A DNA stretch of 27,923 nt from a bacterium (GTDB lineage: Bacteria > Atribacterota > Phoenicimicrobiia > Phoenicimicrobiales > Phoenicimicrobiaceae). The DNA lies in assembly GCA_018819665.1 (NCBI GenBank), contig JAHJOY010000186.1, positions 1 to 27,923 on the forward strand, in the 5' to 3' direction. The first letter of the stretch is position 1. Every line of letters begins with the position of its first letter. Below, in pieces: positions 3,356 through 13,638 of the stretch. A program made the position numbers and the translations under genes. The notes below the pieces were generated by a model that had not been told where the DNA came from, did not search any database, and was given only the letters and a program-made list of their open reading frames with translations.

Positions 3356-4062
3356 ATATTACCATAAAACAAATGATTGAGACCTCTCTGATTGATTGGG
3401 AGGGGAAAATTGTTTCTACTTTGTATCTCCCTTTATGTAATTTTAGATGTCCCTTCTGCTATAATTGTGATTTAATATTACATCCGGATAATTTTAAAAA
3501 TATTCCTCAAAAAGAAATAGACAGTTATCTTTTAGAGAGAAAAGATTTTATCGATGGCATATGTATGAGTGGAGGAGAGCCCACCCTATACCCCGATTTA
3601 CCTGTATATTTTAAAGGAATAAAGGATAAAGGTTTTTTAATAAAGCTGGATACTAATGGTACTAATCCGAAATTATTAGAAAATCTCATAGATTTTGGTT
3701 TGGTGGATTATATTGCCCTGGATATTAAGTCATCATTAGATTTTGGTAATTATTCTAAAGCCGCGGGTATTATAGATAAGATGATGATGGAGAAGGTAAA
3801 AAATAGTATTGAATTAATAATGAACTCAAAAATTGATTATGAATTTCGTACTACTGTCGTGCCTTTATTGCACTCCGATGAGACTATTATGGAAATTGCT
3901 AGGTATATTGCTGGGGCAAAAAAATATGTCTTACAAAATTTCTCTCCTTTAGAGAAGACCCTCGATCCTTCTTTTCAAAAAATAAAACCCTATTCTGATG
4001 AAAAGATTCAGGAATTATCGGAAAAAGCCAAAAAATATGTTCCCAATTGTTGTTGGAGATGA
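3352..4062 (+). CDS. nrdG: Anaerobic RNR activating radical-SAM protein
   Basis: CNFRCPFC radical SAM motif, SGGEPT, KLDTNG, YEFRTT; TTG start overlaps upstream TGA. Confidence 0.93.
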   Translation: MNITIKQMIETSLIDWEGKIVSTLYLPLCNFRCPFCYNCDLILHPDNFKNIPQKEIDSYLLERKDFIDGICMSGGEPTLYPDLPVYFKGIKDKGFLIKLDTNGTNPKLLENLIDFGLVDYIALDIKSSLDFGNYSKAAGIIDKMMMEKVKNSIELIMNSKIDYEFRTTVVPLLHSDETIMEIARYIAGAKKYVLQNFSPLEKTLDPSFQKIKPYSDEKIQELSEKAKKYVPNCCWR

Positions 4063-4109
4063 AAATTAGTCTTTAGTGAAAAGAATAGCGTTTTATTTTT
4101 ACCTAAATA

Positions 4110-4118
4110 TGTTATACT
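4110..4118 (+). promoter_or_regulatory. Extended -10 promoter upstream of glycine riboswitch
   Basis: TG-T-TATACT at 4110-4118; no clear -35. Confidence 0.5.
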
Positions 4119-4167
4119 ATATAAAACTATTTTGAATCGAGATTAGTACAATTAAATAAATTTTTAT

Positions 4168-4356
4168 TCTGGATGAAAGTAATGGGAGAGGTCTTTTCTG
4201 TTACGGAGAAGAAGCCGAAGGGGCAAGATGTATGATACATTTAAACTCTCAGGCAAAAGGACCATTGCCGGACAGAACTCTGGAAGGTTTTTTAATAAAC
4301 ACCGAAGGGGTAATTTCCAATATTCTGGAAAAATCTCTCAGGTAAAAAGACAGGGT
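4168..4356 (+). ncRNA. Tandem glycine riboswitch (two aptamers plus leader)
   Basis: Aptamer 1: GGAGAG...GCCGAAGGGGCAA...AAACTCTCAGGCAAAAGGAC with P1 gtaatgg/ccattgc. Aptamer 2: CTCTGGAAGG...CACCGAAGGGGTAA...AATCTCTCAGGTAAAAAGACAGGG. GGATGAA leader at 4171. Confidence 0.93.
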
Positions 4357-4389
4357 AAGAAATTCCGTTGGAGTATCTTACCCTTTTTT
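4352..4389 (+). terminator. Intrinsic terminator, riboswitch expression platform
   Basis: agggtaaga (4352-4360) / tcttaccct (4376-4384) 9-bp stem followed by T-tract; 5' arm overlaps the 3' P1 strand of aptamer 2. Confidence 0.85.
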
Positions 4390-4440
4390 ATTTTGATACA
4401 GTATAAGTAGTAAAAAATATTTGCAAAAAGTAGAGATAAT

Positions 4441-5268
4441 TTGAACCAGGATTTTGAATTAAAAGAACTTGGACAAATAAAATATTTCAACTGTAGAGAA
4501 TTGGACAACACCAACTTAGTAGTAAATGCTTTTACTACTCGAACAGGTGGGGTAAGCAGAACCCCCTTTGATAACCTTAATTTATCCTATAATGTAGGTG
4601 ATGAAGAAAGCCGCGTAGCAGAAAACAGAAAAATAATTTTAGATTCTTTAAACATTGATTATCGAACCACGATAACTGCCCAGCAAGTCCATAAAGATAA
4701 AATAAGCTTAGTAAGAAAAGAAGATAAAGGTAAGGGAGCCTTTAAATATTCTAAGGGAATCGCACAAACCGATGCCTTAATTACAGATATCCCCGGTATA
4801 CCGCTTCTAATGTGTTATGCTGATTGTGTACCTATTTTTATTTTAGACCCTGTCAAAAAAGCTATTGCCCTAATTCATAGTGGAAGAAAGGGAACAGAAT
4901 TGGAATTAACCTTAAAAACTTTGTTCAAGATGAAAAAAATCTTTGAGAGCCATCCCCGCTCCTGCTTAGCTGCCATTTTTCCCTCCATTGGTCCCTGCTG
5001 TTATTGCATTAAAGAGGAAAATAAAATTGATGATTATTGGTTAAATGAAATTAAATATAATGGTGAACCAATTTCCCTGCAAAACAAGAGCGGGAGGAGC
5101 CTTGATTTAAGAAAAGCAAACTATGGGCAATTAATTAAAGGAGGAGTGGAGGAAAAGAATATTTTTGTTAATGAGATTTGTACGGCAGATTACCCTGAAC
5201 TTTTCTTTTCCTACCGAAGGGATAAGGGAAATACCGGCCGTATGGCCGCTATCTTTATGTTAAAGTAA
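4441..5268 (+). CDS. pgeF: Peptidoglycan editing factor / purine nucleoside phosphorylase (YfiH/YlmD family)
   Basis: FTTRTGGVS, NLNLS, QQVH, DALIT, ADC, HSG, FFSYRR, GRM; His-Cys-His triad present; TTG start. Confidence 0.93.
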   Translation: MNQDFELKELGQIKYFNCRELDNTNLVVNAFTTRTGGVSRTPFDNLNLSYNVGDEESRVAENRKIILDSLNIDYRTTITAQQVHKDKISLVRKEDKGKGAFKYSKGIAQTDALITDIPGIPLLMCYADCVPIFILDPVKKAIALIHSGRKGTELELTLKTLFKMKKIFESHPRSCLAAIFPSIGPCCYCIKEENKIDDYWLNEIKYNGEPISLQNKSGRSLDLRKANYGQLIKGGVEEKNIFVNEICTADYPELFFSYRRDKGNTGRMAAIFMLK

Positions 5269-5340
5269 TAATAAAATGATTGCAATCCAAAAAGTAAACA
5301 AAATAGTAATGTAATCATATTAAAATATAGGGAGGAAGGT

Positions 5341-5646
5341 ATGCGGATAAAAGAGCATCCCATTTTGGAATTTAATCAGAAAGAAAAGATAAAATTCACC
5401 TTAGATGGGGAAGAATTAGAGGGCTATAAGGGTGAACCCATTGCTTCTGCCCTGGTGGCTGCCGGAGTAAAGGTGTTAAGCAGAAGCATTAAATATCACC
5501 GCCCCAGAGGATTTTTTTGTGCCATAGGAAAATGTTCAGCTTGTCAAATGAAAGTAAACGGTATTCCCAACATCAGAACCTGTGTAACTAAATTAGAAGA
5601 AGGGATGAAAGTAGAAACTCAAAAAGGGAAAGGTGATTTTAAGTGA
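5341..5646 (+). CDS. 2Fe-2S protein (HcnA-like / N-terminal domain of sarcosine oxidase or proline dehydrogenase alpha)
   Basis: GEPIASAL, HRPRGFFCAIGKCSAC...NIRTC; strong RBS ggaggaagg. Confidence 0.88.
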   Translation: MRIKEHPILEFNQKEKIKFTLDGEELEGYKGEPIASALVAAGVKVLSRSIKYHRPRGFFCAIGKCSACQMKVNGIPNIRTCVTKLEEGMKVETQKGKGDFK

Positions 5647-6743
5647 AAATGACCGATATAGCAATTATTGGAGGAGGTCCCGCAGGATTATCAGCAGCAA
5701 TTTATGCTGCTTCCTTAGGGGCAAAAGTAATTCTTATTGACGACGGTTTAGAACTCGGTGGACAGTTAATTAAACAGACCCATAAATTTTTTGGTTCCGA
5801 AAAACAGTTTGCCGGGATCAGAGGCATAGAGATTGCCAAAAAGATGATCCAGGATATCAAGGAATATGACAATATTGAAGTCATCGCCAATGCTACAGTC
5901 ACCGGCCATTATGAAGATGAGGTCATTACCATTGTCCAGGGAGTTAATGGTGATATATTAAAAAAAATAAAGGCCAACAGAATTATTGTAGCTACCGGTG
6001 CATCAGAGAATATGCTGCCTTTTGTAAATAACGACTTGCCTGGAGTCTATGGTGCCGGGGCGGTGCAGACCTTAATGAATCTTTACGGCGTAGTCCCGGG
6101 TAATAATATTTTAATGGTCGGGGCAGGCAATATCGGTCTGATTGTAAGCTACCAGCTCCTGCAAGCCGGGATTAAGGTAGAGGCAATAGTGGAAGCCCTT
6201 CCCAAGATAGGCGGATATCTGGTGCATGCCTCTAAGATTAGACGTTTGGGAGTACCTATCTATACTTCTCATTCTCTTAAAGAAGTTTATGGTACAGACT
6301 GTGTAGAAAAAGCCGTAATTTCTAAAATTAATAAAAATTTTGAATTTATTCCGGGGACAGAAAAAGAACTTCAAGTTGACACTATCTGCTTAGCTATAGG
6401 CTTATCTCCACTTTCTGATCTGCTCTGGCAGGCCGGTTGTCAGATGAAGTATATTTCTGAACTTGGAGGCTATGTTGCTTTAAGAGATGATAATATGAAA
6501 TCAAGTTTAAAAAATATTTATATTGCTGGAGATGTAGCCGGCATCGAAGAAGCCAGTAGTGCGATGTTAGAAGGACAAATTGCTGGTTTAAATGCTGCCA
6601 CGAGCTTAGGATATAAATGTGATAATTTTACAAAGTTAAATAAAAGCTTAAAAGCAGAATTAAAAGAATTGCGAGCTAACCCTTTAAGTGAAGAGATAAA
6701 GATAGGTATGGAAAAAGCCCTGATAAAGGAGGGGAAGGATTAA
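5643..6743 (+). CDS. NAD(P)/FAD-dependent oxidoreductase (proline dehydrogenase alpha / HcnB-like)
   Basis: GGGPAGLSAA, LGGQL, ATGA, NDLPGV, GAGNIG, IYIAGD. Confidence 0.9.
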   Translation: MKMTDIAIIGGGPAGLSAAIYAASLGAKVILIDDGLELGGQLIKQTHKFFGSEKQFAGIRGIEIAKKMIQDIKEYDNIEVIANATVTGHYEDEVITIVQGVNGDILKKIKANRIIVATGASENMLPFVNNDLPGVYGAGAVQTLMNLYGVVPGNNILMVGAGNIGLIVSYQLLQAGIKVEAIVEALPKIGGYLVHASKIRRLGVPIYTSHSLKEVYGTDCVEKAVISKINKNFEFIPGTEKELQVDTICLAIGLSPLSDLLWQAGCQMKYISELGGYVALRDDNMKSSLKNIYIAGDVAGIEEASSAMLEGQIAGLNAATSLGYKCDNFTKLNKSLKAELKELRANPLSEEIKIGMEKALIKEGKD

Positions 6744-6745
6744 CC

Positions 6746-7240
6746 ATGTTAGAAAGAACTGGCATACCAACCGATGATGATTTAGAAAAAGTAATTCCGA
6801 ATAAAGAAAGATTAGCAAAAGGACCAGTAGTCATAATAGAATGCTTTCAGAAGATACCCTGTGACCCTTGTGCCATATCCTGTAAACTTGGGGCAATAAA
6901 ACCCTTTAAAGATATAAACGATTTACCTCAGGTCGATTTTGATAAGTGTACCGGATGCGGGATTTGTATCAGTTCCTGCCCCGGTCTGGCCATATTCGTA
7001 ATAGACGAGAATTATTCAGATGAAAAATCTTTAATCAAACTACCTCATGAAATGTTACCTCTACCCCAGAAAGGAGAAGAGATTTATGCCTTAGATAGGG
7101 CAGGAGAAACAGTTGGTAAAGCAAAAGTAGTAAAAGTCCTAAAGATTAAAAGTAAGACCAATATAATTTCCATATCAGTTCCAAAAAATATGGCCATGAA
7201 GATTAGAAGTATAAGAGCGGAGGATAAACGCAATGGATGA
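6746..7240 (+). CDS. 2x[4Fe-4S] ferredoxin-type subunit (proline dehydrogenase gamma-like)
   Basis: CFQKIPCDPCAISC and CTGCGICISSCP. Confidence 0.88.
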   Translation: MLERTGIPTDDDLEKVIPNKERLAKGPVVIIECFQKIPCDPCAISCKLGAIKPFKDINDLPQVDFDKCTGCGICISSCPGLAIFVIDENYSDEKSLIKLPHEMLPLPQKGEEIYALDRAGETVGKAKVVKVLKIKSKTNIISISVPKNMAMKIRSIRAEDKRNG

Positions 7241-7505
7241 CAATGTAATAATTTGTCAGTGTGAAGATGTAACCTGGGGAGAAATTAGACAGGCCTTAGA
7301 AAAAGGTTATACTACCCTTGATGAAATTAAAAGGGTTACCCGAGCGGGAATGGGAAGATGTCAGGGCACGACTTGCCGTAGGATTATCTTAAGGGAAATC
7401 GCTAAGTTTTGCCATAAGAGCATAGAAGAGGTAGCTATACCTACCTTTAGGCCCCCCACCAAGCCGGTAAAATTAGGGACTCTGGCAGGTGATGACGATG
7501 ATTAA
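7233..7505 (+). CDS. BFD-like [2Fe-2S] subunit (proline dehydrogenase delta-like)
   Basis: ICQCEDVT...TRAGMGRCQGTTC...RPP. Confidence 0.88.
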   Translation: MDDNVIICQCEDVTWGEIRQALEKGYTTLDEIKRVTRAGMGRCQGTTCRRIILREIAKFCHKSIEEVAIPTFRPPTKPVKLGTLAGDDDD

Positions 7506-8640
7506 AAGAGCAAGTGTGGTAATAATTGGTGGAGGAGTTATCGGTTGCAGCATTGCTTATAATTTGGCTAAATTGGGATGTAAAGATGTAGTGTTGTTCG
7601 AGAAAAATAGTCTATCCAGCGGAGCTACCGGAAGATGTGGAGCAGGGATCAGACAACAATTTGGTACCAAGATGAACTGTATCCTTGCTCGAGAAAGTAT
7701 TAAAATATTTGAAAATCTAAGTCAGGAGCTGGACTATGATATTGAGCTCAACCAAGGTGGTTATCTTATACTGGCTTACACCGAAAAAGAAGTAAATCAG
7801 TTTAAAAAGAATGTTGCCTTAGAGCGATCTTTAGATATTGATGCCCGATTTATCTCAGTTGATGAAGCAAAAGAAATTGTCCCTCCTCTAAATGCCGAAG
7901 GAATATTAGCTGCCACTTTTTGTCCCACCGATGGACATGCCAATCCCTTTAAAACCAATTTTGCTTATGCGGAAGCTGCCCAAAGATTAGGTGTAAAGAT
8001 ATACACCTTTACTGAAGTAAAAGAGATTGGAACAGAAAACAATAAGATAGTGGCAGTTAAAACAGATAAAGAAAAGATATTAACTCCTATTGTAGTAAAT
8101 GCTGCCGGAGGATACTCAGGAACAATTGGAAAGATGGCTGGAGTAGATTTGCCAGTATATTCTCAAAGACACCAGATATTAGTTACTGAGCCTTTGGACC
8201 CTTTATTCAGACCGATGTTGATGTCTTTTTCCAGAAATTTCTATTGTCAACAGACTCCCCACGGTAGTATATTAATGGGCTGTGGAGATCCCAATGAGCC
8301 GAAAGGTTACGATATTGGCACAAGTTGGCAATTTGCTCGAGAAATTGCTCAAAAAATGACTACTATTGTGCCTCTATTAAAAGAGGTAAGTATGATTAGA
8401 CAATGGGCAGGATTGTATAATATGAGCCCAGATGCTCAACCAATCTTGGGTGAACACCCTCAAGTTGAAGGTTTTTACATGGCGATAGGATTTAGCGGAC
8501 ACGGATTTATGTTAGCTCCTGTAACCAGTAAACTTATTGCGGAGTTGATATTAGAAGGAAAGACTTCTCTTCCTATAGATAAATTAGATATAGGAAGATT
8601 CGAACGGGGTGAACTGATTATCGAACCCTCAGTAGTATAA
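7498..8640 (+). CDS. FAD-dependent amine/amino-acid dehydrogenase (DAO family; sarcosine oxidase beta / proline dehydrogenase beta)
   Basis: GGGVIG, GATGRCGAGIRQQF, WAGLY, PDAQP, GFSGHGFMLAP; start moved from 7489 to ATG 7498 on SD aggtg. Confidence 0.9.
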   Translation: MIKRASVVIIGGGVIGCSIAYNLAKLGCKDVVLFEKNSLSSGATGRCGAGIRQQFGTKMNCILARESIKIFENLSQELDYDIELNQGGYLILAYTEKEVNQFKKNVALERSLDIDARFISVDEAKEIVPPLNAEGILAATFCPTDGHANPFKTNFAYAEAAQRLGVKIYTFTEVKEIGTENNKIVAVKTDKEKILTPIVVNAAGGYSGTIGKMAGVDLPVYSQRHQILVTEPLDPLFRPMLMSFSRNFYCQQTPHGSILMGCGDPNEPKGYDIGTSWQFAREIAQKMTTIVPLLKEVSMIRQWAGLYNMSPDAQPILGEHPQVEGFYMAIGFSGHGFMLAPVTSKLIAELILEGKTSLPIDKLDIGRFERGELIIEPSVV

Positions 8641-8940
8641 GAAATAAAATAATAAAACTTATTTCATTCAATAAAAGAAGGGTTTTTTAATTTTTTGTAG
8701 AATATATATATGATAAATAGGTTAGGCAAAAAATAATCTACAGATGGTTTTTCTCAAAATTTAAAAAAGGTACCTAGTAACTGTAATTTTGTGAGTGACT
8801 ATTCTTACAGAAAAAAAAGGAGGTGAAAGGATTTCTTAAATAACTATATAATAGAAGTTACCTCTAATGTTATGGCTAATTAATTTGCTAAAATGATCTG
8901 TTTTTTTATGTATTTTAAAATAATTAAAGGAGAATTAAAA

Positions 8941-10107
8941 ATGAAAAGAATAAAATTTTTGTTAGTTATTAGTATGTTAGTATTGGCTCTTGGCGTAGCT
9001 TCTTTGGGAGTGATGGCTGCTGATAAACCACCGGTAGTAATCGGTCTTCAAGCTCCAATTACTGGTGCAGCCGCAATTGAAGGTGAAATGGCTAAACAGT
9101 CTGTAGAAATTGCAGCTCAAATGATCAATGAAAAGGGTGGAATTTTGGGTGGCAGAATGATTGAAATTAGAGTAGTTGATGATGCTTGTGAACCCAAACA
9201 AAGTGCTTTAGCAGCAACGAAGTTAACATCTCAGAAAGATGTAGTTGCTGCTATTCAAACCTACGGCTCTTCTATTACCCAGCCTGCTTCTGATATATAT
9301 GAAAAATATAAAAAAGTAAATATTGCTTATGGTGCAACTGTTACCGGTCTTACCGAAAGAGGGTTAAAGTATTTCTTCCGTACTTGTGGAAGAACCGATA
9401 CTCAAGGTGCATTTTTTGCAGATGAAGTCGTTCCCCTCTTTAATGCTAAAAAAATAGCCATTATGCATGATAACCTAACCTTCTCTTTGGGGCTTGCTGA
9501 AGATACCAAAAAATCCTTACAACCTAAGATAGATGCTGGAGAGGTAGAATTAGTCTACTTTGATGCAATTACACCCGGAGAATCTGATTATACTGTTCCT
9601 CTGACTAAATTAAGAGAAACTAATCCGGATATATTCTATTTCACCGGTTATTTCCCGGAAGCAGGATTAATAATCAGACAAGCCCGCGATATCGGAATTA
9701 CGGCAGTATTTGTAGGCGGAGATGCAGCCATTAATGAAGATTTCATTAATATTGCCGGTTTAGAGTATGCTGCAGGTTGTTATCAAACCCAGGAAGCCTT
9801 AATCGAATATTTTACCAACCCTGAAGCAATGGAATTTAAAGAAGCCTATAAGGCGAAATATAATACTCTTCCATCCAGCCCCTGGTCAGTTTATGCTGCC
9901 GATGCTCTCTGCGTACTTGCAGAAGCTATTGACAAATCTGGTTCCACCGATTCAGATGTCATCGCTGATTATCTGAGAAATAAGATGGATAAATTCCCCA
10001 GTATTACCGGTCCAATAAGTTTTGATGAAATTGGTGACCGTGTAGGAACCGGAATTAATCTTTATGTAGTAAACGCAGATGGAAGTTTCGGAATTTACGG
10101 AAAATAA
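8941..10107 (+). CDS. livK: Branched-chain amino acid-type ABC transporter substrate-binding protein
   Basis: Signal peptide MKRIKFLL...GVMA-AD, APITG, DDACEP, FFRT, DYTVPL, YAADA; RBS aaggag favours 8941 over 8893; substrate unknown. Confidence 0.88.
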   Translation: MKRIKFLLVISMLVLALGVASLGVMAADKPPVVIGLQAPITGAAAIEGEMAKQSVEIAAQMINEKGGILGGRMIEIRVVDDACEPKQSALAATKLTSQKDVVAAIQTYGSSITQPASDIYEKYKKVNIAYGATVTGLTERGLKYFFRTCGRTDTQGAFFADEVVPLFNAKKIAIMHDNLTFSLGLAEDTKKSLQPKIDAGEVELVYFDAITPGESDYTVPLTKLRETNPDIFYFTGYFPEAGLIIRQARDIGITAVFVGGDAAINEDFINIAGLEYAAGCYQTQEALIEYFTNPEAMEFKEAYKAKYNTLPSSPWSVYAADALCVLAEAIDKSGSTDSDVIADYLRNKMDKFPSITGPISFDEIGDRVGTGINLYVVNADGSFGIYGK

Positions 10108-10132
10108 AATAAAAATGAGGTAAGATACGAAG

Positions 10133-11044
10133 ATGAAAATCATATTAGAGCAGTTACTTAACGGATTGACCATAGGTTCATTTTATGCTCTTATTGCTCT
10201 CGGGTATTCCATGGTATACGGGGTAATGAAGCTGATTAATTTTGCGCACGGAGACTTATTTGCCCTGGGTTCTTATCTTGGATATACCCTTCTCGTATTT
10301 GGCTCTACCTATGTTACCGTCACCTTTGGTATATGGGGCGGTATGATTGCGGCTATGTTAATAGCCGCAATCGGCATAGGAATTGCCGGTACTTTAATAG
10401 AGCGAATTGCCTATCGTCCAATATATTCAGTAGGCCGGCTTCCCGCAGTAGTGTCTGCATTAGGTGCTTCAATTGTTATACAAAATGGGATAATGGTTGC
10501 TTGGGGCCCGCGCCCGCAAGCTTATCCCTCACAGGTTGTTCCTTCGATTATGTTAAATATTGGAGAGTTTAAAATTACTTTATTACAAGTTATAATTTTA
10601 TTGATTTCTTTTATGCTTATGGGACTTTTATATTATATTGTTCAAAAAACTACCTTTGGCGCAGCTATCCGTGCTTGTGCTTTGGATAGAGATACTGCCG
10701 CCTTAATGGGGATAAACATTGAAACAATTATATTTTTTATTTTTGCTTTAGGCCCGGCTTTAGGCGGAATGTCAGGAGTAATGGTAGGTATGTACTATAG
10801 GAAGATTAGTTTTATAATGGGATGGAATTATGGATTAAAAGCCTTTACTGCTACTATCCTGGGAGGTATCGGTAATATCCCGGGTGCAATGCTGGGAGGA
10901 CTTCTCCTGGGAGTATTGGAAATGTTAGGATCTGCCTACATTTCTACCGCTTATAAGGATGTGTTTGTATTTTTAGTTTTAATATTAGTATTAATTTTTC
11001 GCCCCAGAGGTCTTTTGGGTGAAAAAGTTGCAGAAAAAGTGTAA
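10133..11044 (+). CDS. livH: ABC transporter permease LivH
   Basis: NGLTIGSFYALIALGYSMVYG, NFAHG, GAAIRA, LGGIGNIPGA, RPRGLLG. Confidence 0.93.
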   Translation: MKIILEQLLNGLTIGSFYALIALGYSMVYGVMKLINFAHGDLFALGSYLGYTLLVFGSTYVTVTFGIWGGMIAAMLIAAIGIGIAGTLIERIAYRPIYSVGRLPAVVSALGASIVIQNGIMVAWGPRPQAYPSQVVPSIMLNIGEFKITLLQVIILLISFMLMGLLYYIVQKTTFGAAIRACALDRDTAALMGINIETIIFFIFALGPALGGMSGVMVGMYYRKISFIMGWNYGLKAFTATILGGIGNIPGAMLGGLLLGVLEMLGSAYISTAYKDVFVFLVLILVLIFRPRGLLGEKVAEKV

Positions 11045-11056
11045 AGGGGCGAAAAT

Positions 11057-12055
11057 ATGAAATTAAACAAAAATATAACAGAAAAAAATAGTATATTTAA
11101 AAATTGGATGGTTATCTTAGCAGCGATTTTATTTATAATATTACCTTTTATAATAAATGCTTATTGGGTAGATGTTTTATTTTTCTTCGGCATCTATGCT
11201 CTTTTGGGACTTAGTTTAAATATTGTTTTAGGAGAAGTGGGGCTTTTTGATTTAGGACATATTGGATTTATGGCTATCGGTGCTTACACTACCGCAATAC
11301 TTAATGCCACCTTTGGAATTCCTATAATTATTTTACTGCCAGTAAGTGCAATTGCAGCAGGTGCTTTTGCCTGGTTAGTCTGTTCTCCAATCATCCATTT
11401 AAGAGGAGATTACCTGTGTATCGTAACTATCGGGATGGGTGAAATTGTCCGGCTTACTTTAAACAATAATCCATTTGGAATTACCGGTGGTCCAAATGGG
11501 GTTTTCGGAATTGATTTTCCTTCATTGGGGAGTATCTTTGTAGTCGATAATTCTACTAAATTTTATTATTTCATATGGTTAATAGTCGGCCTAACCATCA
11601 TCGGTTTGGTTAATTTGCAGCGTTCGCGAATAGGAAGAGCCTGGAACTGCATCCGAGAAGATGAAATTGCTGCAGAAGCTACCGGGATTGATGTTAGGTA
11701 TTATAAGTTATTGGCTTTTGTTTTAGGAGCAGGTTTAGCCGGGGTTGCCGGTAATGTTTACGCTACTAAATTAATGATGGTTTCTCCGGAGAGTTTTAAC
11801 TTTATGGAATCCTGCATGCTCTTCTGTATTGTATTAATCGGAGGAATGGGTTCTATACCCGGAGTGTTAATCGGGGCTGCTGCCATCAGCCTTTTCCCGG
11901 AATTTTTCCGAACTTTCGCCCAATACCGAATGCTAATTTTTGGAGCAGCCATGGTGGCTATGATGGTCTTTAAACCCGGTGGTATTTGGCCCAGGAAAAG
12001 AGGAGCCGTTAAATTCAAATCACTTTTAATGAAAGCAGGAGATGAAAATGGCTAA
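11057..12055 (+). CDS. livM: ABC transporter permease LivM
   Basis: LRGDYLCIVTIGMGEI, TGGPNG, GRAW, REDEIAAEATG, GGMGSIPG. Confidence 0.93.
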   Translation: MKLNKNITEKNSIFKNWMVILAAILFIILPFIINAYWVDVLFFFGIYALLGLSLNIVLGEVGLFDLGHIGFMAIGAYTTAILNATFGIPIIILLPVSAIAAGAFAWLVCSPIIHLRGDYLCIVTIGMGEIVRLTLNNNPFGITGGPNGVFGIDFPSLGSIFVVDNSTKFYYFIWLIVGLTIIGLVNLQRSRIGRAWNCIREDEIAAEATGIDVRYYKLLAFVLGAGLAGVAGNVYATKLMMVSPESFNFMESCMLFCIVLIGGMGSIPGVLIGAAAISLFPEFFRTFAQYRMLIFGAAMVAMMVFKPGGIWPRKRGAVKFKSLLMKAGDENG

Positions 12056-12896
12056 AGACAATAATAGTATGGAAACAATGATAAGAACCAAACAAGCAAA
12101 TGAAGAAATAAATAAAATTAATAAAGTTGTTTTGCAAACCGATAAACTTACTAAAAAATTCGGCGGTTTAACTGCAGTAAACAATTTTGACCTTAAAGTG
12201 AGTCAAGGGCAAATAAGCAGCCTGATAGGCCCTAACGGAGCAGGAAAAACTACTGTTTTTAATGTAGTTACCGGCATATATAAAGCTGATGGTGGAAAAG
12301 TTGTCTTTAAGGGAGAAGACCTTGTCGGTAAAAAACCTCATCAGATTATAAAAAAGGGAATTGCGCGGACTTTTCAAAATATTCGACTTTTTTCCAATAT
12401 GACCTGTCTGGAGAATGTTATGGCAGGGCAGCACTGCCGTAGTAATGAGGGAACCTGGACTTCTATTTTACAAACTCCCGGACAAAAAAAAGAAGAATTG
12501 GAAATTAAGAAAAATGCTGAAGACCGCCTTAAACAGGTCGGATTATGGAAATATCGAGATGAATTAGCAAAAAACATTGCCTATGGTAATCAGAGAATGT
12601 TAGAAATAGGCCGAGCTTTAGCCTCTAATCCTGATTTATTAATTTTAGACGAACCAAGCAGCGGCCTAAATGATAAAGAATCTGAAGACCTGATAATATT
12701 TTTAAAATTCTTATTAAAGGAAGATTTAACTATTTTACTTATCGAACACGATATGAATGTAGTAATGGGAATTTCTCATTGGGTTACAGTAATGGACGAA
12801 GGTAAAAAAATTGCTGAAGGTTTGCCCGAAGATGTATATAGTAATCCTCAAGTAATTGAAGCTTACTTAGGCAAAGACGAAGAGGAGGAGGAATAG
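12048..12896 (+). CDS. livG: ABC transporter ATP-binding protein LivG
   Basis: FGGLTAV, GPNGAGKTT, RTFQN, LDEP, LIEHDM, EAYLG; SD aggag fits ATG 12048. Confidence 0.93.
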   Translation: MAKDNNSMETMIRTKQANEEINKINKVVLQTDKLTKKFGGLTAVNNFDLKVSQGQISSLIGPNGAGKTTVFNVVTGIYKADGGKVVFKGEDLVGKKPHQIIKKGIARTFQNIRLFSNMTCLENVMAGQHCRSNEGTWTSILQTPGQKKEELEIKKNAEDRLKQVGLWKYRDELAKNIAYGNQRMLEIGRALASNPDLLILDEPSSGLNDKESEDLIIFLKFLLKEDLTILLIEHDMNVVMGISHWVTVMDEGKKIAEGLPEDVYSNPQVIEAYLGKDEEEEE

Positions 12897-12900
12897 TAAT

Positions 12901-13638
12901 ATGACTACATTGTTGAAAGTAGAAGATTTAAAAATATTTTATGGTTCTATCGAAGCTCTTAAAGGAATTTCACTTACAGTTGATGAGGGTGAAATAGTTA
13001 CCGTATTAGGGGCAAATGGGGCCGGGAAAAGCACTCTTTTAAGGGCTATCTCCGGGTTATTGCCCATCCGCAGCGGAAAGATTAAGTTAGGTGACCAAGA
13101 ACTTAACAATGTTAAGGCATTCAAAATAGTTATGGGGGGCATTTCGCACGTACCCGAGGGTCGAAAAGTATTTGCAACTCTTACAGTCGATGAAAATCTT
13201 AATTTGGGTGCATATACTCGAAGAAAAGACAAAAAGAATATTAAAGAATCTAAAGAAAGGGTTTATGATTTATTTCCTATTCTTAAAGCGCGACGTAATC
13301 AATTATCCGGAACATTATCAGGTGGTGAACAGCAGATGTTAGCAATGGGAAGAGGTTTAATGAGCACCCCCCGCATCTTACTTCTGGATGAACCTTCTCT
13401 GGGTTTGGCTCCCTTATTAGTAAAACAAATTATCCAAATTATCCGTGAAATTAATAATCAGGGTATATCAATATTATTAGTAGAACAAAATGCCCGTAAA
13501 GCATTAAGTATCGCTGATAGGGGATATGTGCTGGAAACCGGGAATATTACTATTAGTGGATTAGCTTCCGAATTAAAGAGTAATAAAAAAGTCCAGGAGG
13601 CCTACCTGGGAGGCGCTGCCCTTAAGAAGAGAAAATAA
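12901..13638 (+). CDS. livF: ABC transporter ATP-binding protein LivF
   Basis: GANGAGKS, VPEGR, LSGGEQQMLAMGR, LDEPSLGLAP, VEQN. Confidence 0.95.
   Translation: MTTLLKVEDLKIFYGSIEALKGISLTVDEGEIVTVLGANGAGKSTLLRAISGLLPIRSGKIKLGDQELNNVKAFKIVMGGISHVPEGRKVFATLTVDENLNLGAYTRRKDKKNIKESKERVYDLFPILKARRNQLSGTLSGGEQQMLAMGRGLMSTPRILLLDEPSLGLAPLLVKQIIQIIREINNQGISILLVEQNARKALSIADRGYVLETGNITISGLASELKSNKKVQEAYLGGAALKKRK

Follow-up and report, generated by a model that had tools for sequence, protein, structure and literature searches.

The gene gcvT is the classical target of glycine riboswitches, and in the gcvT-type tandem switch of Bacillus subtilis (RF00504), two aptamers with a conserved binding core are connected by a short linker, the leader and the linker pair in the P0 helix, and the 5′ arm of a terminator competes with the P1 stem of aptamer 2. 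A switch that is alike in all these respects lies in front of pgeF in the stretch of DNA analysed here (27,923 nucleotides, positions 1 to 27,923 of contig JAHJOY010000186.1; hereafter the window), which was sampled from a 1.73-Mb metagenome-assembled genome in 348 contigs (GCA_018819665.1; G000 below) of an uncultured member of the Atribacterota. Unlike the gcvT-type switch, it is followed by pgeF and a putative proline-dehydrogenase-like complex of five subunits (R1 to R5), not by a glycine cleavage system or a transporter. As an RNA, the element is unremarkable and falls within a known class; what is new is its wiring.

Glycine toxicity via misincorporation into peptidoglycan precursors is established. 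PgeF, known as YfiH in Escherichia coli and YlmD in B. subtilis, was recently recognized as a conserved editing amidase which clears Gly and Ser from precursors, and mutants of both species accumulate Gly/Ser precursors (PMC12280929). In Staphylococcus aureus, pgeF is conditionally essential in excess glycine, with a log2 fold change of −6.76 in transposon sequencing (Tn-seq) and a lower minimum inhibitory concentration (bioRxiv 10.64898/2026.06.08.730841). As for R1 to R5, the closest described system is the alpha-beta-gamma-delta dye-linked L-proline dehydrogenase of Thermococcales (Pyrococcus horikoshii PDH1, 1Y56; cited in PMC4575208), and the wider family also uses D-hydroxyproline, opines, glycine (HCN synthase), and sarcosine (PMC4575208).

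We consider the switch to be, with a probability of about 0.6, a facultative control at the level of the operon, acting on pgeF together with R1 to R5, in which PgeF is a sensible co-induced member and not the object of a dedicated sensor. Expression of PgeF is likely glycine-dependent, and synteny does not decide which cargo was selected. If true, a glycine ON switch before pgeF would be the first case of a misincorporated metabolite inducing its own proofreader. The searched literature held no link of a glycine riboswitch to pgeF, yfiH, or ylmD, no mention of glycine riboswitches together with Atribacter, and no report on the control of pgeF expression, metabolite-sensing control included; in one paper, both “glycine riboswitch” and “yfiH” occurred, but as entries of tables and reference lists that have nothing to do with each other. 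The comparative data restrict this idea, as the same switch gates the dehydrogenase operon and sister species do without the switch. In addition, glycine riboswitches have become unusually numerous in this lineage, where they precede envelope and surface genes.

Two matches to RF00504, both exceeding the curated gathering score of 32 as expected of the tandem type, make up the element, namely aptamer 1 at 4173-4274 (63.1 bits, E 4.3e-11; Rfam search) and aptamer 2 at 4270-4363 (52.7 bits; whole-genome Rfam search). The tandem model RF03166 could be aligned end to end over 4169-4357 with 85.8 bits, which is below its cut-off of 110. The P0, P1, P3a, and P3b helices that characterize the RF00504 tandem type are backed by covariation: in an alignment of relatives, 12 of the 73 consensus pairs keep pairing via double-sided changes, terminator pairs included, and the P1 pair 15/105 was seen as UA, UG, and CG, although such support is modest, the aligned switch sequences being close relatives. 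Judged by these scores and pairings, the whole span of 4169-4363 is a genuine tandem glycine riboswitch, and its RNA would be expected to bind glycine. An open reading frame of 60 amino acids at 4228-4410 falls within the riboswitch and was rejected as a mechanical artefact. Upstream of aptamer 1, the extended −10-like box (Table 1) is also found 5′ of the switch in genomes G010, G009, G008, G011, G004, and G007, and it resembles a promoter-like module whose 3′ side is the 5′ end of an RNA contig at 8712; this box is the putative promoter of the switch.

The intrinsic terminator behind the aptamers folds with −19.4 kcal/mol (z = −4.6 versus shuffles), and in relatives its stem carries compensatory AU-to-GC and CG-to-UA changes. 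Its 5′ arm uses the same GGG as the 3′ strand of aptamer-2 P1, which couples the expression platform to the aptamer as in RF00504; a ligand-stabilised P1 and the terminator are therefore predicted to be mutually exclusive, and the overlap is the classical ON-switch layout. Without glycine, the terminator would fold over 4353-4389 and RNA polymerase would halt, while with glycine bound, aptamer-2 P1 would sequester the terminator 5′ arm and allow read-through, so that anti-termination by glycine is the predicted mode of action. The gated unit would comprise six genes, namely pgeF and those for the five subunits of a flavin/Fe-S amine dehydrogenase whose type is that of archaeal L-proline dehydrogenase. 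Co-induction of PgeF by glycine would be physiologically sensible, since excess glycine enters peptidoglycan precursors and PgeF clears it. RNA depth over the bin 4205-4445, which was very high in three runs, was unusable for telling terminated from read-through transcripts, because loose ends reveal a contribution of paralogous switch copies to it.

Table 1. Features of the riboswitch-pgeF-redox locus in the window.
Feature	Position	Strand	Basis or remark
Promoter-like extended −10 (TGTTATACT)	4110..4118	+	~50 nt 5′ of aptamer 1; conserved in relatives
P0 helix leader strand and glycine aptamer 1	4169..4274	+	RF00504 63.1 bits; P0, P1 in consensus fold
Glycine aptamer 2	4270..4363	+	RF00504 52.7 bits; RF03166 tandem alignment
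Intrinsic terminator (predicted expression platform)	stem 4353-4383, T6 4384-4389	+	Fold energy, shuffles, compensatory changes
pgeF (ylmD/yfiH family), 275 aa, TTG start, weak Shine-Dalgarno	4441..5268	+	PF02578, TIGR00726, aligned residues
pgeF-R1 spacer (72 nt), strong Shine-Dalgarno before R1	5269..5340	+	No convincing terminator, fold z = −1.4
R1, 2Fe-2S subunit (Fer2_4; like SoxA N-terminus or HcnA)	5341..5646	+	Domain match
R2, FAD/NAD(P) oxidoreductase, alpha-like (Pyr_redox_2)	5643..6743	+	Domain match
R3, 4Fe-4S ferredoxin-like subunit, gamma-like	6746..7240	+	Domain match
R4, small SO_alpha_A3/BFD-like subunit, delta-like	7233..7505	+	Domain match
R5, DAO-family catalytic subunit, nearest archaeal L-proline dehydrogenase beta	7489..8640	+	1Y56_B 316 bits
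Promoter-like module before Liv-type ABC transporter genes	8677..8711	+	Exact X15 contig starts at 8712

The original prediction that pgeF is the first gene behind the riboswitch terminator holds, the next open reading frame being 4441-5268, while the spacing from the end of the T-run to the TTG is 51 nt and not the 52 nt given there. In relatives, the gap between pgeF and R1 ranges from 13 to 72 nt and is 13 nt in G019 and G021. An exact contig (0 mismatches) from the groundwater metatranscriptome library X15, covering 5048-5406, bridges pgeF and R1, and a contig of library X16, which belongs to a related strain and differs at 28 of 733 positions, starts in the end of nrdG, crosses the switch, and reaches into pgeF (4006-4739); stretches of pgeF outside the RNA contigs were not taken as silence. 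These contigs are in line with the predicted co-transcription of pgeF and R1 to R5 as a single mRNA. The position of the switch before pgeF had also been taken as an argument against its having arrived only with the redox genes, on the grounds that it should then stand behind pgeF. This argument fails, since in all family loci examined the redox genes share an operon with pgeF, and an RNA contig bridges the junction here. Because the pgeF-redox operon predates the switch, a redox-directed terminator switch would be expected at the very same place, and the position does not discriminate.

Twenty pgeF loci of family f1, which is the window's own GTDB family, were compared. R1 to R5 follow pgeF wherever the contig allows, nrdG lies upstream in most loci, and the pgeF-redox unit is kept in every locus examined, with or without the switch. 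The switch is facultative: it was found between nrdG and pgeF at 10 of about 20 loci, nine of them in the same genus (G000, G003, G004, G005, G007, G008, G009, G010, and G011) and one in another genus (G022), and it is absent from G002, G012, G013, G017, G019, G021, G023, G026, and G027; the spacer of G001 is given as N. The spacer of G017, whose PgeF is 94% identical to that of the window, measures 52 nt and matches the window on both sides of the missing 326 nt. Loss is directly visible at three loci. A deletion in G002 stretches from the promoter module as far as pgeF codon 4, and G013 has kept the T-tail and the sequence behind it, with the aptamers gone. In G022, the P1 strand and core bases of aptamer 1 have been lost, with hardly any change in aptamer 2 or the terminator. 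Singlet glycine riboswitches with a “ghost” aptamer exist, and G022 resembles them in this respect, whereas the window switch is a full tandem; the aptamer state of G022 may be decay rather than a stable singlet.

In a tree of concatenated R1 to R5 proteins, the switch-bearing genomes are scattered and include the deepest branch of the family, which favours an old insertion followed by several losses, as judged from the branching order. All switch-bearing loci may come from one insertion event, in which case the position of the switch carries no statistical weight either way. Where it has been retained, the RNA appears to be under purifying selection, since switch orthologues are 92-98% identical to that of the window and third-codon positions of pgeF in the same genomes are 72-86% identical.

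Some points weigh against the operon-level reading. The R1 to R5 tree does not fully match the genus assignments, leaving the number of losses uncertain. The contigs from the RNA libraries are supporting evidence, as they cannot prove one mRNA and may contain DNA. Moreover, a weak sigma-70-like match (9/12) is present at 4393-4421, between the terminator and pgeF, and some transcription of pgeF could be independent of the switch.

The protein encoded by pgeF matches PF02578 (Cu-oxidase_4) with 234 bits and passes the NCBIfam equivalog TIGR00726, “peptidoglycan editing factor PgeF”, with 163.8 bits versus a cut-off of 141.15. Its TTG start at 4441 is backed by homologues aligning from residue 1, and G029 has ATG at this position. 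When aligned with E. coli YfiH from the MG1655 record, H84, D111, C129, and H146 correspond to His71, Asp89, Cys107, and His124, and Q82, Y259, and R267 to Gln69, Tyr227, and Arg235, so that the window protein shares with YfiH and YlmD (PMC12280929, PMC8844914) both the equivalog score and the whole catalytic and contact set. The roles of the YfiH residues, including the contact of Trp127/Arg128 with the UDP diphosphate, were described previously (PMC8844914). This last pair is replaced in family f1, where the motif reads H-S-G-R-K-G (Trp to Arg, Arg to Lys) with the charge kept; the Trp is retained in the sister family and in E. coli. The corresponding residues 149-150 (window 4885-4890) are Arg-Lys in the aligned family f1 proteins and Arg-Asn in G029. 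In a whole-genome search, this was the only PgeF-family gene found, and murC was found in the same genome (538 bits). By family score and catalytic set, the window protein can be assigned to PgeF, with a putative editing activity. A terminator-like hairpin in the 3′ end of pgeF (5235-5248) was rejected, as its sequence is part of the conserved C-terminal motif and the region does not fold more stably than shuffled versions.

A direct link from sensor to proofreader was originally proposed, i.e., that the switch was selected to raise PgeF at high glycine and that the redox genes are carried along. Part of this stands, as pgeF is first behind a functional-looking ON switch, encodes the catalytic set, was found as a single copy, and is accompanied by murC; the part claiming a direct link is not supported, since the whole operon would be gated and the switch is facultative. 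As a dedicated device for PgeF, the switch is unlikely, though this retains some weight. pgeF stands immediately behind the switch at 10 of the 10 switch-bearing loci, the switch never abuts the redox genes, and the need for PgeF in S. aureus under excess glycine, together with the Gly/Ser precursors accumulating in E. coli and B. subtilis mutants, would supply a reason for such a device. As well, L-proline and not glycine is the substrate of the closest enzyme to the redox complex that has been characterised, the gcvT gene of this genome (G000:C314:3529-4614, minus strand) has no riboswitch match on its contig, and the sister family retains the redox cluster without any switch. However, a switch before pgeF was never seen without redox genes behind it, all cases may be a single evolutionary event, and in about half of the relatives pgeF is kept while the switch is missing or has been lost. 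The translation signals point the same way, with a TTG start and a weak Shine-Dalgarno sequence for pgeF against a strong one for R1. In G023 (L068:9700-10165, minus strand), an in-frame deletion of ~120 codons has removed the catalytic core of pgeF with the active-site His, Asp, Cys, and His, while R1 to R5 are intact and there is no switch; a second pgeF was not found in this genome, which is 65% complete.

The damage in G023 and the weak translation start of pgeF would suit another explanation, that the redox complex is the selected target, with glycine as its substrate or as a proxy for amino-acid supply, and that PgeF hitch-hikes as the first cistron. In its favour, R5 belongs to the DAO family together with glycine oxidase, sarcosine oxidase, and HCN synthase (PMC4575208), and other switches in this genome and its relatives control catabolic and transport genes (fhs, a formate channel, and a solute-binding protein). 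However, R5 matches the P. horikoshii L-proline dehydrogenase beta subunit (1Y56_B, 316 bits) about twice as well as it does sarcosine oxidase beta (150 bits) or glycine oxidase (136 bits). Since the sister-family cluster is also without a glycine switch and the ABC transporter behind R5 appears to be separately promoted, we regard the redox complex as an improbable sole target. A broken pgeF behind an intact switch in G005 was set aside as evidence for it, because several operon genes look disrupted there and poor assembly is as likely a cause; likewise, pgeF of G024 looks truncated owing to an N-run in its assembly.

R2 to R5 agree with the Thermococcales enzyme in the affinity of the beta subunit and in the set and order of subunits (oxidoreductase, ferredoxin, small subunit, and DAO subunit), and a putative complex of the L-proline-dehydrogenase type is the best reading of R1 to R5. 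They differ from it in being bacterial, in the separate 2Fe-2S subunit R1, and in the predicted co-transcription with pgeF. Downstream of R5 follow, in order, a Liv-type ABC transporter (8893-13638), phoU, ylmE, ylmG, divIVA, yggU, and ileS. An X15 contig matching exactly and bearing an adapter and GGG at its end starts at 8712, just behind a promoter-like module, and the transporter therefore probably has its own transcription start. The module consists of a GAAGG-T-run, ~10 nt, and a TGT.GTATA-like box; further instances lie 5′ of riboswitch copies (L006 and L156-L185) and between nrdG and pgeF in G010, G003, G009, and others.

The window genome contains two tandem glycine switches only, one before pgeF and one (L006:5009-5209) before fhs, which encodes formate-tetrahydrofolate ligase. 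At least one glycine-riboswitch match was obtained for each of the family f1 genomes searched, and one precedes fhs in 4 of the 4 genomes with the downstream gene identified. The aptamers of the pgeF switch, variable stems included, resemble those of the fhs switch of the same genome (overall identity 77%), and for this reason the pgeF switch would be a paralogue that arose as a duplicate of the fhs switch. According to this scenario, the duplicate would have been set at the 5′ end of a pre-existing pgeF-redox operon, being selected for in some species and deleted in others.

In relatives G009, G015, G011, G010, and G021 (L156-L185), whose genomes measure ~2 Mb, the number of aptamer matches rises to as many as 20, equivalent to ~10 tandem switches. 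Relatives also contain a second type of switch that is very uniform, with an aptamer 1 of 109 nt, an aptamer 2 of ~145 nt, and its own terminator. It precedes genes for CsgG/LpoB-like lipoproteins, a patatin-like lipase, and cyclopropane-fatty-acid synthase, as well as those for Flg_new, PKD, He_PIG, Big_2, and Lcl_C surface proteins, DUF4412, a solute-binding protein, and a formate channel. It might be speculated that in JS1-type Atribacterota glycine is a signal for cell-envelope care, switching on, via ~10 tandem copies per 2-Mb genome, PgeF together with cyclopropane-fatty-acid synthase, patatin-like lipase, CsgG/LpoB-like lipoproteins, and many surface-repeat proteins. If this doubtful idea were true, the pgeF copy would be the first known metabolite-sensing control of cell-wall editing.

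The same expansion could be read in a humbler way, with riboswitch-plus-promoter units duplicating opportunistically before assorted genes, so that the pgeF copy would mean little in particular and be in the course of disappearing. The many copies before unrelated genes would agree with this, as would the repeat-rich mosaics of the nrdG-pgeF spacers, the repeated losses of the switch, and the decayed aptamer of G022. However, wherever the switch persists, its conservation greatly exceeds that of adjacent synonymous sites, and compensatory changes have occurred in it, terminator included, which makes such a meaningless cassette highly improbable.

The history of the locus could be followed in the sister family f2, in which nrdG is followed by R1 to R5, the transporter, phoU, ylmG, divIVA, and ileS, without pgeF and without the switch. 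The pgeF of f2 (~35-41% identical) is found at another place, flanked by genes for DUF2461 and a B12-radical-SAM protein, and also has no switch. In two genomes of genus g7 (family f1), ftsA-ftsZ or ftsZ stands directly 5′ of pgeF, and outside the phylum ylmE adjoins pgeF in 56 of 63 loci. Judged by gene order, the window pgeF occupies the canonical place of ylmD, where the division cluster ends. In this it is like YlmD with respect to ylmE, ylmG, and divIVA, with the redox-transporter-phoU block between ylmD and ylmE; besides the Arg at Trp127, the ~9.7 kb of redox, transporter, and phoU genes before ylmE and the riboswitch control are what sets it apart from YfiH and YlmD. The ylmD position, with ftsZ and ylmE as neighbours, indicates that pgeF is not a passenger of the redox cluster. 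An arrangement that would have counted against the original prediction, with the switch always abutting the redox genes and pgeF a lineage-specific passenger, was thus not encountered.

A switch kept on pgeF orthologues without the redox cluster, which had been expected if PgeF were the object of control, was seen in none of the groups compared, i.e., family f1, the sister family, and loci outside the phylum. No switch before pgeF without the redox cluster was found by Rfam in six sister-family and six other-phyla loci, and none before pgeF in the 63 loci outside the phylum by a core-motif regular expression, which is a weak test. Nor does a switch abut the redox genes in the sister family, where three loci (L058-L060) are devoid of any Rfam match, and other riboswitch matches of that family are on contigs other than the redox-cluster contig.

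In genus g7, the glycine switch is replaced by another leader 5′ of pgeF, which measures ~250 nt and includes a TATAAT-like box as well as a strong terminator (L056:10902-11465, minus strand; L055:1351-1800, minus strand). It matched no Rfam family at E <= 5 and could represent a cis-regulator of this operon that has yet to be described. The spacers between nrdG and pgeF in G010, G003, G004, G005, G008, and G007, which are 440-830 nt long, are mosaics of short repeats, such as CCAATT/CACCAATT runs, tandem CGAGATA units, and GC-rich hairpins like GGGGCACGATGCATCGTGCCC. An imperfect palindrome, TGTGAAAA...TTTTCACA, lies 5′ of the switch in relatives and is missing in the window. Upstream of the switch, the window carries nrdR, nrdD, a thioredoxin-like gene, and nrdG. 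Finally, the nrdD gene of G021 (L052:2410-6408) is split by ~1.5 kb between residues ~336-361, which suggests an intein or an intron.

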